This document shows positions 16,721 through 21,666 of a DNA stretch of 64,000 nucleotides, piece by piece. The DNA comes from Escherichia coli (lineage in GTDB: Bacteria > Pseudomonadota > Gammaproteobacteria > Enterobacterales > Enterobacteriaceae). The notes under the pieces were generated by a model. It saw only the letters and a program-made list of their open reading frames with translations. It did no database searches and was not told the DNA's origin. The stretch lies in the NCBI RefSeq assembly GCF_003334405.1, contig NZ_QOWM01000002.1; one strand, given 5' to 3'. The translations under genes were made by a program, and so were the position numbers. Numbering within the stretch: position 1 is the stretch's first letter; each line of letters starts with the position of its first letter.

Positions 16721-17434
16721 TCAGAGCGGATTCTTTTTGTTGCGAATCAAGTTGAGGCTTTCAACCGCAATAGAGAAGAACATCGCGAAGTAGATGTAAC
16801 CTTTCGGTACGTGGATGTCGAAACTTTCCAGAATCAGGGTAAAGCCCACCAGAATCAGGAAAGAGAGCGCCAGCATTTTTACCGAAGGATGGCGTTCGAC
16901 AAAATCACCAATCGAGCGCGCGGCGAACATCATCACGCCTACGGCAATCACCACGGCTGCCATCATAATAAACAGGTGATCTGACAGACCCACAGCCGTA
17001 ATCACCGAGTCGAGGCTAAAGATAATATCCAGCAGCATAATCTGCACGATAGCGCCGAGGAATGATGAAACGCGTGTTTTCAGCCCTTCTTCTTCACCTT
17101 CAATGGATTCGTGGATTTCCTTGCTGGCTTTCCAGATAAGGAACAAGCCACCCAGAAGCAGAATCAAATCACGGGCAGAAATTTCCTGACTGAATATTGT
17201 AAAAAGCGGATTTGTCAGGCGCGTAACCCAGGCGATTGATGCCAGCAGCGCCAGACGCATAACCATGGCTCCCGCCAACCCCAGACGGCGCGCATGAGCA
17301 CGTTGTGCTGTGGGAAGCTTTGCCACCACCAGAGAAAGGAAAATAATATTGTCGATCCCAAGAACGATCTCCAGCAGCGTCAGCGTACCGAGCGCAAGCC
17401 AGGCGTTAGGATCGGTTATCCATGCAAATAACAT
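16721..17434 (-). CDS. ygdQ: TerC-family inner-membrane protein (UPF0053)
   Basis: 237 aa polytopic membrane protein. Confidence 0.9.
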
Positions 17435-17502
17435 CTAAAAAGCCCTGCCAAAAAAATGAAGCGGTAATTATATGCCCGGAAAGCGGCAGGTCAAAGCGAT
17501 GG

Positions 17503-18192
17503 CTACTGGATCAGAAAATGACGGGCCAGTAGTGCACTGGTGAAATTCTTCTTCAAATAAAAGCCGCGTGGCAGCGTCAGAATCCGTTCGCCCCGGGCAC
17601 CAATGGCTTCGGTAAGCGCTTTCGCATTCGCTGCTTTCGGTCGTATCTGTAAATACTCCCCGTGACGAGCGGTAATCCGCTCAACCTGACCGAGAACAAT
17701 CATATCCATTAATTCTTCCCAGTCTTCGCGTAGCTGCCGGTCTTCCTCTTCATTCGGGCTCCACAGCAACGGTGATCCAACGCGACGCTGCGCCAGCGGG
17801 ATGCTGCGCTCGCCTTCAACCGGTATCCACAGTACGCGTTTGAGTTTGTGGCGCACGTGGCTGGTTTCCCAGGTCACCCCGCTATTGCCCGTTAACGGGG
17901 CAACACAAACGAATGTTGTTTCCAGCGGACGACCAAGACTATCCACAGGGATAGTTTTAAGTTCCACGCCCAGAGCAGCAAAATCTTGCTCAGGTTTACT
18001 CCCTGCGCTGGCACCTAGCCAGATCTCCAGTAACACGCCAATCCAGCCTTTATCGCGTTTTAAATTCTCTGGCGTAACCAGCCCGACAAGTGCCGCCAGT
18101 TCTCCCAATGTATAACCAGAAAGTTGCTGTGCTTGCGCTAACAACTGTTCTTCAGTTTCGGGAGGAGAGAGCAGTGGGCGAGGTTGGGACAT
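17503..18192 (-). CDS. mutH: DNA mismatch-repair endonuclease MutH
   Basis: 229 aa; full-length match to MutH. Confidence 0.95.
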
Positions 18193-18377
18193 GTCATGAT
18201 ACCTTGATTAAAAAACAAACAGCAATTATGTGCCGAATATTCGCAGTGTAACTTTTTCCACATGCGTTGTTCAATTCTCTGATTTATATTGCTTTTTAGG
18301 TTGCCGGTAATCGAGTTGCGCAACACTGCAACGGGTTTTCCAAATCTGGTCACTGAAAATAAACAGGATCTTACACC

Positions 18378-18524
18378 ATGTTATCCACAGAAAGCTGGGA
18401 TAACTGTGAAAAACCTCCACTACTGTTTCCATTTACAGCCTTGACGTGCGACGAAACTCCAGTTTTTAGTGGTTCAGTGCTTAACTTAGTGGCACATTCT
18501 GTGGATAAATACGGCATTGGTTGA
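18378..18524 (+). CDS. ygdT: Small hypothetical ORF (48 aa), possibly ygdT; lies inside the DnaA-box region
   Basis: ATG 18378 to TGA 18522-18524 (MLSTESWDNCEKPPLL...); no convincing RBS; a consensus DnaA box sits at each end, so coding status is doubtful. Confidence 0.3.
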   Translation: MLSTESWDNCEKPPLLFPFTALTCDETPVFSGSVLNLVAHSVDKYGIG

Positions 18525-18751
18525 TCTTTCGCCAACCCGTAAATGAGAGGTGTGACCTGGGTCACGAATTACTCTTTTTCATTACTAAAATTACATGTAA
18601 TGCATTGACTGATAATGAATATTTTAAAATGTCTATATCGGGCTTATTCAGAATGCTCCGGGTTTTCCCGTAGTAATTCCGTAGTTCTTCACAACTCTAT
18701 CCACAGAAAAGGTGAATAAAAACGGCTATCCACCCCTTCCTCTGTTTATAA
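18381..18751. promoter_or_regulatory. DARS2-like DnaA-reactivating region: cluster of DnaA boxes in the mutH-rppH gap
   Basis: Perfect TTATCCACA at 18381-18389 (+) and TGTGGATAA at 18500-18508 (-); CTATCCACA at 18697-18705, CTATCCACC at 18726-18734 and TGTTTATAA at 18743-18751 are near-consensus. DARS2 is reported in the mutH-ygdP(rppH) intergenic region. Confidence 0.6.
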
Positions 18752-18876
18752 CTCTGCACATAACTGTGAGTTATTCAATTGTTATTAGTGTGTAATGCCC
18801 TGCAGAGAGTGGTTTACCGTCTTCCTGGAGTATGAAACAATCATTCGTATATAAAGCTTTATTTTGAGGTAGTCCG

Positions 18877-19407
18877 GTGATTGATGACGATGGCTACCGC
18901 CCAAACGTAGGTATCGTGATTTGTAATCGCCAGGGGCAGGTAATGTGGGCCCGGCGATTTGGTCAGCACTCCTGGCAATTTCCGCAAGGCGGAATCAACC
19001 CCGGAGAATCCGCAGAGCAGGCGATGTACCGTGAATTGTTTGAAGAAGTAGGATTAAGCCGCAAAGACGTTCGAATCCTTGCTTCAACGCGTAACTGGTT
19101 GCGCTACAAATTACCGAAACGTTTGGTGCGTTGGGACACGAAGCCGGTTTGTATCGGCCAAAAACAAAAATGGTTTCTCTTGCAGCTGGTGAGCGGCGAT
19201 GCAGAAATCAATATGCAAACCAGCAGTACACCAGAGTTTGACGGCTGGCGATGGGTAAGTTACTGGTATCCGGTCAGACAGGTGGTGTCATTTAAACGTG
19301 ATGTCTACCGTAGGGTAATGAAAGAGTTCGCGAGTGTGGTGATGTCACTGCAGGAAAATACGCCAAAACCACAAAACGCATCTGCTTATCGACGTAAAAG
19401 AGGTTAA
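18877..19407 (+). CDS. rppH: RNA pyrophosphohydrolase (Nudix)
   Basis: 176 aa, GTG start; Nudix box [23 protein letters not shown]. Confidence 0.94.
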
Positions 19408-19419
19408 GTCACGCCAATT

Positions 19420-21666
19420 ATGCTCACTCGCCTGCGCGAAATAGTCGAAAAGGTAGCCAGCGCACCACGCCTGAATGAGGCGTTAAATATTCTGGTTACC
19501 GACATCTGTCTTGCGATGGATACCGAGGTCTGTTCGGTCTACCTGGCCGATCATGATCGACGTTGTTACTACCTGATGGCGACCCGGGGGCTGAAAAAAC
19601 CACGCGGTCGCACTGTAACGCTCGCGTTTGATGAAGGGATCGTCGGCCTGGTTGGCAGGCTGGCGGAACCGATAAACCTTGCAGATGCGCAAAAGCACCC
19701 CAGCTTCAAATACATCCCCTCCGTAAAAGAAGAACGTTTCCGCGCGTTTTTAGGCGTACCAATTATTCAACGTCGCCAGTTGCTTGGTGTACTGGTGGTA
19801 CAGCAACGAGAGTTGCGCCAGTATGACGAAAGTGAAGAATCCTTCCTGGTGACGCTTGCCACCCAGATGGCAGCTATTCTTTCTCAGTCGCAGTTGACTG
19901 CCTTGTTTGGGCAATATCGCCAGACGCGAATCCGCGCATTACCGGCAGCACCTGGTGTGGCGATTGCCGAAGGCTGGCAGGATGCCACGTTACCTTTAAT
20001 GGAACAGGTGTATCAGGCATCAACGCTGGATCCGGCTCTGGAACGCGAACGACTGACCGGGGCGCTGGAAGAAGCGGCAAACGAGTTTCGCCGCTACAGC
20101 AAACGCTTTGCCGCCGGTGCACAAAAAGAAACGGCGGCTATTTTCGATCTTTACTCGCACCTGCTTTCGGACACCCGGCTGCGTCGCGAATTGTTTGCCG
20201 AGGTTGATAAAGGCTCGGTGGCAGAGTGGGCGGTAAAAACGGTCATTGAAAAATTTGCCGAACAGTTTGCCGCGCTAAGTGATAACTATCTCAAAGAGCG
20301 GGCTGGCGATTTACGTGCGCTGGGTCAGCGATTGCTGTTTCATCTTGATGACGCTAATCAAGGGCCGAACGCCTGGCCGGAACGTTTCATTCTGGTGGCA
20401 GATGAACTGTCAGCGACAACGCTTGCTGAGCTGCCCCAGGATCGCTTAGTCGGTGTTGTCGTGCGAGATGGCGCAGCCAACTCCCATGCTGCGATCATGG
20501 TACGTGCGCTGGGGATCCCTACCGTGATGGGCGCGGATATTCAGCCTTCGGTGCTGCATCGTAGGACGCTGATCGTTGATGGCTATCGCGGTGAATTGCT
20601 GGTCGATCCGGAGCCGGTACTGCTGCAAGAATATCAGCGGCTAATTAGTGAAGAGATTGAGCTTAGCCGTCTGGCGGAAGATGACGTCAATTTACCCGCG
20701 CAGTTAAAAAGCGGTGAGCGTATAAAAGTCATGCTCAATGCTGGTTTAAGCCCGGAACATGAAGAAAAACTGGGCAGCCGTATTGATGGCATCGGTCTTT
20801 ATCGCACTGAAATCCCATTCATGCTGCAAAGTGGTTTCCCGTCGGAAGAAGAACAGGTGGCGCAGTATCAGGGGATGCTGCAAATGTTCAATGATAAACC
20901 CGTCACCTTGCGTACGCTGGATGTCGGAGCAGATAAGCAGCTGCCTTACATGCCGATCAGCGAAGAGAATCCATGCCTGGGTTGGCGTGGGATTCGCATT
21001 ACGCTCGATCAGCCGGAGATCTTCTTGATCCAGGTGCGGGCGATGCTGCGTGCTAATGCCGCTACGGGCAACCTGAATATTCTGTTGCCGATGGTCACAA
21101 GCCTCGATGAAGTTGATGAAGCACGCCGCCTGATTGAACGTGCCGGACGTGAAGTCGAGGAGATGATCGGTTACGAAATTCCCAAACCACGTATCGGCAT
21201 CATGCTGGAAGTGCCGTCAATGGTATTTATGCTGCCGCATCTGGCAAAGCGGGTCGATTTCATCTCTGTTGGCACCAACGATCTGACTCAATACATTCTG
21301 GCCGTTGATCGCAACAATACCCGGGTGGCGAACATTTATGACAGTCTTCATCCTGCAATGTTACGAGCTCTGGCGATGATCGCCCGGGAAGCGGAAATAC
21401 ATGGAATCGATCTCCGTTTGTGCGGTGAAATGGCGGGCGATCCCATGTGCGTGGCAATCCTCATTGGGCTTGGGTATCGCCATCTGTCTATGAACGGACG
21501 TTCTGTAGCGCGGGCAAAATACCTGCTGCGGCGCATTGATTATGCCGAAGCAGAAAATCTTGCGCAGCGTAGTCTGGAAGCGCAACTGGCGACCGAAGTT
21601 CGCCATCAGGTTGCAGCCTTTATGGAGCGTCGCGGCATGGGCGGGCTGATTCGCGGAGGGTTATAG
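19420..21666 (+). CDS. ptsP: PEP-protein phosphotransferase enzyme I-Ntr (GAF domain + enzyme I)
   Basis: 748 aa; N-terminal GAF, C-terminal PEP-utilising enzyme domains; 12 bp after rppH. Confidence 0.94.
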   Translation: MLTRLREIVEKVASAPRLNEALNILVTDICLAMDTEVCSVYLADHDRRCYYLMATRGLKKPRGRTVTLAFDEGIVGLVGRLAEPINLADAQKHPSFKYIPSVKEERFRAFLGVPIIQRRQLLGVLVVQQRELRQYDESEESFLVTLATQMAAILSQSQLTALFGQYRQTRIRALPAAPGVAIAEGWQDATLPLMEQVYQASTLDPALERERLTGALEEAANEFRRYSKRFAAGAQKETAAIFDLYSHLLSDTRLRRELFAEVDKGSVAEWAVKTVIEKFAEQFAALSDNYLKERAGDLRALGQRLLFHLDDANQGPNAWPERFILVADELSATTLAELPQDRLVGVVVRDGAANSHAAIMVRALGIPTVMGADIQPSVLHRRTLIVDGYRGELLVDPEPVLLQEYQRLISEEIELSRLAEDDVNLPAQLKSGERIKVMLNAGLSPEHEEKLGSRIDGIGLYRTEIPFMLQSGFPSEEEQVAQYQGMLQMFNDKPVTLRTLDVGADKQLPYMPISEENPCLGWRGIRITLDQPEIFLIQVRAMLRANAATGNLNILLPMVTSLDEVDEARRLIERAGREVEEMIGYEIPKPRIGIMLEVPSMVFMLPHLAKRVDFISVGTNDLTQYILAVDRNNTRVANIYDSLHPAMLRALAMIAREAEIHGIDLRLCGEMAGDPMCVAILIGLGYRHLSMNGRSVARAKYLLRRIDYAEAENLAQRSLEAQLATEVRHQVAAFMERRGMGGLIRGGL

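Follow-up and report, generated by a model that had tools for sequence, protein, structure and literature searches.

Genomic context and identity of the mutH-rppH gap

In the window, that is the whole 64-kb stretch of Escherichia coli DNA that was analysed, both the ORF list and the RefSeq annotation place the coding sequences of mutH (17503..18192, minus strand) and rppH (18877..19407, plus strand), which bound on the left and on the right, respectively, a gap of 684 bp at 18193-18876; the ORF list puts ptsP after rppH. Within the gap both sources give ygdT (b4610), a 48-codon ORF on the plus strand (18378..18524). The gap is identical, base for base, to that of E. coli K-12 MG1655 (100% identity), and the K-12 record has the same order of genes, namely rppH, ygdT (b4610, 2969330-2969476, minus strand), mutH and ygdQ, with positions on NC_000913.3 being given by 2,987,854 minus the window position. 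The stretch is found at ≥95% identity in 5425 of 5426 complete E. coli genomes. Comparison of rppH neighbourhoods was extended to 80 species, and the length of the gap is about 672-712 bp in nearly all sampled Enterobacterales; the main alignment consists of the window and 22 other Enterobacteriaceae, for a total of 23 sequences. An Rfam scan of 17000-20000 at a permissive threshold returned no relevant match.

E. coli has two chromosomal DnaA-reactivating sequences, of which DARS2 is one; the K-12 element was reportedly studied by Fujimitsu in 2009. Studies of DARS2 in K-12 also include Kasho 2014 (PMC4245941), Miyoshi 2021 (PMC8682772) and Kasho 2025 (PMC11724364), and DARS2 has been placed upstream of mutH (PMC11317965). 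The gap is the divergent mutH-rppH (ygpD/nudH) intergenic region in which DARS2 is expected. Indeed, the proposal of an earlier note, made from the letters alone, that the location matches that of DARS2 is borne out by the identity to K-12 and by the mapping of published primers and oligonucleotides: the dCore segment, boxes IV-VI, IBS1-2, FBS1-6 and the 21-mer described below all lie within the gap, and primers and oligonucleotides follow each other in the expected order of core, box IV, IBS1-2, FBS1, 21-mer, box V, box VI and FBS6. Sequence, location and all named parts are the same as those of K-12 DARS2, and the gap, as judged by its sequence, is DARS2 itself and not merely DARS2-like. The element is known and well studied; recognising this main timer of E. 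coli chromosome replication, one of several, from raw sequence was correct, with an anatomy that was approximately right, and adds nothing new by itself.

DnaA boxes in the gap

Two perfect DnaA boxes of opposite orientation are present as had been described, TTATCCACA at 18381-18389 on the plus strand and TGTGGATAA at 18500-18508, which is TTATCCACA on the minus strand, with 110 bp between them. They are the only perfect TTATCCACA 9-mers in the window, and the inverted repeat at this pair extends over 12 nt (TTATCCACAGAA / TTCTGTGGATAA). The boxes had been said to lie exactly at the start and the end of the small ORF, which is accurate for the first, corresponding to codons 2-4 of ygdT, but only approximate for the second, after which the ORF continues for another 16 nt. 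A second cluster had been located at 18697-18751. It does begin at a genuine core box (box II), but those boundaries leave out box III (18685-93) and do not single out box I (18711-19). The additional 9-mers that the cluster contains are CTATCCACC at 18726-34, which has two mismatches and is not conserved, and TGTTTATAA at 18743-51, which is conserved; neither belongs to the six named boxes, and the latter lies outside the 455-bp fragment used in published work.

Nine-mers that differ from the consensus at one position are common, with 109 in 64 kb, and a cluster of box-like sequences might thus be a chance product of AT-rich intergenic DNA. However, the gap contains 4 exact and 10 one-mismatch occurrences of TTWTNCACA, as compared with window-wide means per 684 bp of 0.087 and 1.16 and with maxima outside the gap of 1 and 4, respectively, and 10 one-mismatch boxes were reached in 0 of 2000 shuffles of the gap. 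As this enrichment is far above both the window mean and the shuffles, the cluster is real. In addition, boxes and spacing are conserved throughout an order of bacteria, and the gap is occupied by DnaA in vivo according to ChIP-seq. A chance origin, which deserves almost no credence, is already refuted.

Anatomy and mechanism of DARS2

The published DARS2 fragment is 455 bp long (PMC4245941) and corresponds to 18288..18742, where the core-side end is exact, being set by primer MutH-4 (18724-18742), and the mutH-side end is approximate, as it is inferred from the length. The core spans 18685..18719 and is flanked exactly by the dCore primers MutH-14/15 and by the lambda-Red deletion primers MutH-9/10. 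It has the three boxes of DARS2, namely box III (TTCTTCACA, 18685-93) and box II (CTATCCACA, 18697-705) on the plus strand, and box I (GGTGAATAA, 18711-19) on the minus strand, where it reads TTATTCACC; boxes II and I are in head-to-head orientation, 5 bp apart. Box IV (TTATTCAGA, 18644..18652, plus strand), located by primers Ksh-30/31, is not conserved outside Escherichia (mean pairwise difference 0.58). The pattern scan and the substitution primers Ksh-16/19 identify IBS1-2 as two IHF consensus 13-mers at 18598-610 (plus) and 18614-26 (minus), and the 3 bp that separate them match the "3 bp apart" of PMC4245941. FBS1 (GGTCACGAATTACTC, 18560-74) was located by a consensus scan and overlaps a CRP-like palindrome. 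The critical 21-mer that carries FBS2-3 is defined by the difference between primers MutH-11 and MutH-17 (18510..18530), and holds the stop codon of ygdT (18522-24) and a GATC (18523-26).

Oligonucleotide FBS2-5-f covers 18487..18538, a region that comprises Fis sites 2-5, box V and the low-affinity boxes V-a, V-b and V-c. Box V, located by Ksh-32/33 and by the subDnaA box V oligonucleotides, is the perfect TTATCCACA at 18500..18508 (minus strand), whereas box VI, a high-affinity box replaced between Ksh-34 and Ksh-35, is the perfect TTATCCACA at 18381..18389 (plus strand). Further towards mutH, FBS6 lies at approximately 18316..18332, replaced between primers Ksh-9 and Ksh-10. Thus IBS1-2 and FBS2-3 occupy their published positions, boxes IV, V and VI are all present, and the inverted perfect pair is made of regulatory boxes VI and V and is not the catalytic core. 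Both of these boxes are invariant in 23 of 23 Enterobacteriaceae sequences.

The activity of these parts has been described for the identical sequence, including the release of ADP from DnaA by DARS2 with IHF and Fis (PMC8682772, PMC4245941). ADP-DnaA binds to core boxes III, II and I, and the molecules on the facing boxes II and I form a head-to-head AAA+ dimer that leads to ADP release (PMC8682772); apo-DnaA then rebinds ATP. Bending of the DNA by IHF bound to IBS1-2 allows Fis at FBS2-3 to act on the core complex, and the 21-mer with FBS2-3 is essential to activation (PMC4245941). [quoted passage not shown] When box IV, V or VI is substituted, a DARS2 plasmid still stimulates initiation (PMC4245941).

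Occupancy in vivo is reported as three DnaA ChIP-seq peaks, at 2969124 (78x), 2969306 (199x) and 2969501 (213x) (PMC11317965). Their numbering is stated to be that of NC_000913.2 and fits DARS2 only as NC_000913.3, and was therefore read as the latter, which gives window positions 18730, 18548 and 18353. The strongest peak (213x) is about 30 bp from box VI. The two "double DnaA boxes" printed in PMC11317965 correspond to 18685-18705 and 18370-18389.

The ygdT reading frame

The ORF at 18378-18524 lies inside the DNA regulatory element, as had been proposed, running from box VI to the Fis-binding 21-mer. It had also been suggested that ygdT may not be a real gene, a view that the comparative evidence supports and that is unproven, since the frame is intact in Escherichia and is transcribed. 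Alternatively, ygdT could be a real gene for a small protein, restricted to certain lineages, in which case one sequence would serve both as coding DNA and as the regulatory half of DARS2. Indeed, RefSeq annotates ygdT in every row inspected among complete E. coli genomes, and both E. albertii and a divergent genome named E. coli have an unbroken ORF. A protein search retrieves 48-aa forms at 65-75% identity, that is, of the same 48-codon length, in some other enterobacterial assemblies, together with variants of 36-76 aa, so that the frame persists here and there. An AGGA is found at 18365-68, 9 nt before the ATG, and directional RNA-seq reported a dedicated-looking transcript of about 217 nt over ygdT (window about 18349-18565) in all seven conditions, which was called likely coding in that work.

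Against this reading stands the fate of the frame in other species. A comparison of the conservation of the ORF with that of the boxes across Enterobacteriaceae, a check that the earlier note had proposed, indicates that the DNA is constrained and that boxes VI and V are invariant, but that the frame is not kept. In particular, the 147 nt of ygdT align with zero gaps across 22 other Enterobacteriaceae, yet the start is lost or the frame is broken in 16 of the 22: 6 species have CTG, GGG or CAG in place of the ATG, and 12 have stops within the frame. CTG is the natural state in Pluralibacter and some Enterobacter. In most of the 22, the TGA of E. coli is absent because GTTGATC has become GTTCGATC or GTCGATC. 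The exact ORF is kept by only two of the 22 genomes, both Escherichia, while one more species keeps the stop with a CTG start.

Diversity at codon positions 1, 2 and 3 is 0.199, 0.216 and 0.161 in ygdT, as compared with 0.034, 0.010 and 0.412 in the first 49 codons of rppH, and no third-position excess is seen in ygdT across the 23-sequence alignment. Within Escherichia, "synonymous" divergence amounts to 0.03-0.06 in ygdT versus 0.13-0.51 in mutH and rppH, so that the "synonymous" sites are as constrained as the others. The sole informative comparison, with genome L002, gives 4 non-synonymous and 2 synonymous changes, which are small numbers. The variable middle of the putative product undergoes radical replacements, such as ETPVFSGSVLN versus ENRKFRQIVRK, and every conserved "residue" coincides with a DNA motif: MLST with box VI, WDN with its inverted partner, LLFPFTALTCD with a conserved block at 18419-52, and SVDK with box V.

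The signals for translation overlap with DNA elements as well. The low-affinity DnaA box CTTACACCA ends with the A of the ATG, and the AGGA lies inside the invariant ACAGGATC. Transcription by itself is no demonstration of translation, and the 5' ends of the ygdT transcript, converted from NC_000913.2, scatter over 18296-18415. Since both the AGGA and the transcript fall within conserved DNA elements, they carry little weight as evidence for a gene. A search for ribosome-profiling or proteomic data on ygdT returned none in either direction; neither ygdT nor its K-12 coordinates are mentioned in the one supplement searched. The "ygdT" of Salmonella and H-NS papers is a misspelling of YdgT.

Taken together, these comparisons suggest that the constraint at ygdT acts on DNA and not on protein, and that a functional protein gene is most likely not what is present; that ygdT is a lineage-restricted gene embedded in DARS2 appears unlikely. 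The open frame may be owed to DNA that is conserved without insertions or deletions, in which the start, the Shine-Dalgarno-like AGGA, the most "conserved" residues and the stop would each be part of DNA binding elements. The annotation of ygdT (b4610) is best treated as doubtful. This has a practical consequence: any deletion of or insertion in ygdT would in reality be a regulatory mutation of DARS2, since boxes V and VI are lost together with the part of the FBS2-3 21-mer in which the stop lies.

Transcription and other conserved blocks

Promoters can be proposed for both flanking genes. For mutH, the hexamers given in PMC3946193 were located by eye as a predicted proximal promoter, TCGGCA-18-TTTAAT, at 18207..18236 on the minus strand, and RNA-seq places the start of the mutH transcript near 18207 (converted from NC_000913.2). 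For rppH, conserved blocks and hexamers read from the sequence point to a probable promoter at 18814..18851 on the plus strand (conserved stretch 18806-42), with TTTACC as -35 and TGaAACAAT (18833-41) as extended -10, and an RNA-seq 5' end is found near 18851.

Three additional blocks are conserved. The first, at 18419..18452, contains a LexA-box-like TACTGT-N8-ACAG (18421-40) followed by TTGACG (18441-46). The LexA-like site has a borderline score of 12.9, as compared with 13.4 for the weakest of 19 known sites, and a chance match elsewhere in the window scores equally; the site is conserved in position, though not in a palindromic pattern. A parallel with DARS1 was considered for this block and set aside, as the LexA box of uvrB is about 310 bp away and on the opposite side. 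A literature search on box VI, LexA and DARS2 found only the plasmid substitution result. The second block is the CRP-like palindrome TGTGAC-CTGG-GTCACG at 18551..18566, which overlaps FBS1 and differs from TGTGA-N6-TCACA by one mismatch. YGTGA-N6-TCAC is present at a fixed offset in 19 of 23 Enterobacteriaceae, the window included, whereas in other families it is largely absent, occurring in 1 of 23 further sequences and at a different offset. The same bases form a weak hairpin, which was rejected as a terminator given that no T-run follows directly; the fifth pair is broken in several species in which the GTGA/TCAC half-sites are kept, a pattern that fits a protein site better. The third block, CTGTTTATAAC...CTGTGAGTTATTCAA at 18741..18778, lies beside the core, outside the 455-bp fragment, and includes the TGTTTATAA 9-mer mentioned above.

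The TTGACG of the first block is also the -35 of a predicted sigma-70 promoter, TTGACG-18-TTTAGT (18441-70, plus strand), located between boxes VI and V. One may ask whether DnaA bound at boxes VI and V controls transcription in the gap, with the boxes serving as operators in addition to, or in place of, their part in DARS2; the target would be the ygdT transcript or this promoter, and transcription through the Fis and DnaA sites might in turn reset DARS2. RpoD SELEX reported a constitutive-promoter peak in the spacer and proposed TTGACG-18-TTTAGT as directed towards rppH (PMC3946193). The -35 side of this promoter lies in a conserved block, but its -10, TTTAGT, is not conserved and has no A at the key second position, and a promoter and terminator scan returned one weak mutH-side promoter and the weak hairpin at 18551-66, with nothing at 18441-70. 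RNA-seq detects RNA on both strands (plus strand over 18349-18565, minus strand over 18439-18748); the 5' ends on the plus strand are, however, scattered, as noted above, and rppH seems to own a proximal promoter near 18814-41. Transcription has been reported to regulate IHF binding at datA, and PMC8682772 describes the way in which IHF leaves DARS2 as unexplained. On balance, an operator function of boxes VI and V is rather improbable.

A proposed second core-like triad at box VI

The best-conserved block of the whole gap in the 23-sequence alignment is not the core but 18342-18403. Immediately upstream of box VI lies the low-affinity box CTTACACCA (18370..18378, plus strand; here III-prime). 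It makes up the first half, and box VI the second, of a "double DnaA box" printed in PMC11317965, and 7 of its 9 columns are invariant among the 23 sequences. On the other side, 5 bp from box VI as in core II to I, a putative inverted partner (I-prime) is found at 18395..18403 on the minus strand; it reads CTGGGATAA, with the reverse complement TTATCCCAG, and matches the DnaA consensus at 6 of 9 positions. The resulting module, CTTACACCA-tg-TTATCCACA-gaaag-CTGGGATAA, can be compared with the core, TTCTTCACA-act-CTATCCACA-gaaaa-GGTGAATAA. It follows the plan of the core triad, that is, a strong box, a 5-bp spacer, an inverted box (6/9) and a direct third box 2-3 bp upstream, and GGGTTTTCC precedes both units.

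To score this arrangement, a weight matrix of box II-N5-box I was built from other species only and applied to both strands of the window. The core scores 41.1, 18381-18403 scores 20.0 and box V 7.5, while scores elsewhere in the 64 kb are at most 2.0. In 53 scanned gaps of Enterobacterales, the second-best match is the box VI module in all but one, and exactly 316 bp separate the module start from core box II in 44 of these gaps, with 314-317 bp in 8 more; the exception is the uncultured MAG L063, whose best match is a different one, 266 bp away from the module. In all gaps where both were detected by the scan, boxes V and II are 200 bp apart. In Vibrionaceae a perfect box is present at 323-325 bp, mostly without the inverted partner.

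The same plan is found in DARS1, in the bioD-uvrB intergenic region, which reads TAATACACA-tgg-TTATCCACA-ggaat-AGTGGATAA. By eye, DARS1 matches the box VI module at 22 of 28 positions, the trailing ATAACTGT included, and the DARS2 core at 18 of 28. The two elements differ in that DARS1 needs neither IHF nor Fis and lacks boxes IV-VI. More distantly, datA and oriC resemble DARS2 in having clusters of DnaA boxes and an IHF site, with DNA bending that joins DnaA complexes; their arrays are, however, head-to-tail and serve ATP hydrolysis (datA) or unwinding (oriC), while DARS2 releases ADP from a head-to-head pair.

Box VI would thus be part of a second core-like triad held in a strict 316-bp register, about 30 helical turns, with the true core. 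A conserved triad in such a register suggests that box VI is likely to act in a DnaA-dependent way on the native chromosome, through a role that plasmid assays have missed. A more specific reading, which we hold only tentatively, is that DARS2 has two core-type units and that the box VI triad (18370-18403) is a functional head-to-head DnaA site, for which its conservation, its ChIP-seq signal (the highest at the locus) and its fixed distance from the core throughout Enterobacterales can be cited. The triad could be a second site of ADP release, or it could anchor DnaA that is then passed or looped to the core; if the two-core reading is true, its role would have been missed because the over-initiation assays on plasmids do not need box VI. 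As a related possibility, the RNA over "ygdT" may stem from a regulatory transcription unit whose activity removes DnaA and Fis from the regulatory half of the element. Two observations weigh against a second triad, namely that I-prime reaches only 6/9 and that the substitution of box VI is without effect in plasmid assays (PMC4245941). Neither I-prime nor a core-like triad at box VI was found in the DARS2 literature searched, of which the original DARS paper was not part.

Implications for DARS2

Collectively, these data make it very probable that the gap is DARS2, that ygdT is most likely no functional protein gene and that box VI belongs to a second core-like triad. What is added to the knowledge of K-12 DARS2 is comparative only and consists of the 316-bp and 200-bp spacings, the box VI triad and the lack of coding constraint in ygdT. 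Current models of DARS2 give box VI no role, and the strictly phased triad around this box, which resembles the core, offers a modest and possibly new lead that can be tested. Models of DARS2 architecture can be checked against the two exact spacings (316 bp and 200 bp), the conserved inverted partner of box VI and the other conserved blocks.

Conserved and variable parts of DARS2

The most strongly conserved stretch in the whole 684-bp mutH-rppH gap (18193-18876), which carries the DnaA-reactivating element DARS2, is the block at 18370-18403 around DnaA box VI (18381-18389, + strand). This module consists of a direct low-affinity box, box VI itself and an inverted partner at a spacing of 5 bp, and it repeats the plan of the DARS core, in which boxes III, II and I lie at 18685-18719 with II and I head-to-head across a 5-bp spacer. 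Of 53 scanned gaps from Enterobacterales, 44 place the box VI module exactly 316 bp from core box II.

Conservation differs among the remaining boxes. Box IV (18644-18652), although a named box, is unconserved beyond Escherichia (mean pairwise difference 0.58), and the exact-consensus box TTTTCCACA at 18254-18262 is restricted to Escherichia and one Citrobacter, its place being taken in many other genera by TGTGGAT or TGTGGAC about 15 bp nearer mutH.

Conserved blocks are also found between and beside the DARS2 parts. The block CACTACTGTTTCCATTTACAGCCTTGACGTGCGA (18419-18452) holds a borderline LexA-box-like site at 18421-18440 and a -35-like TTGACG. A CRP-like palindrome, TGTGAC-CTGG-GTCACG (18551-18566), overlaps the Fis-binding site FBS1. 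YGTGA-N6-TCAC keeps a constant distance to box V (18500-18508, - strand) in 19 of 23 Enterobacteriaceae sequences, the window included, and is largely missing in neighbouring families. Adjoining the core, and beyond the published 455-bp DARS2 fragment, is conserved CTGTTTATAAC...CTGTGAGTTATTCAA (18741-18778). Within it are two box-like 9-mers oriented as box I and the 10-mer ATAACTGTGA, which is also present 3' of the box VI module.

Transcription in and near DARS2

A published RNA-seq assembly contains DARS2 RNA on both strands, at 18349-18565 (+) and 18439-18748 (-). The + strand transcript takes in the Fis sites together with boxes VI and V, and it stops about 30 bp short of the IHF sites. 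Further downstream, at 18806-18851, the blocks AGAGTGGTTTACCG and GTATGAAACAATC show almost no variation; they include an extended -10, TGaAACAAT, and resemble an rppH promoter. An RNA-seq 5' end mapped close to 18851 fits this candidate, as does a minor-sigma SELEX peak from the heat-shock table (converted position about 18820).

Two points concern the literature: the DnaA ChIP-seq DARS2 peaks (PMC11317965) are stated in NC_000913.2 numbering and match NC_000913.3 only, and 'YgdT' in several Salmonella and H-NS papers is a misspelling of YdgT.

Age of the two-site layout

In the Vibrionaceae rppH loci (L064-L080), a near-perfect DnaA box followed by G (T/ATATCCACAG) lies upstream of rppH at a fixed distance (511-519 bp). 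It is 323-325 bp away from a recognisable core, and the inverted partner beside it is mostly missing. Because Vibrionaceae keep the upstream box at these distances from both rppH and the core, sequence comparison indicates that the two-site layout predates Enterobacterales, mostly in a form lacking the inverted partner.
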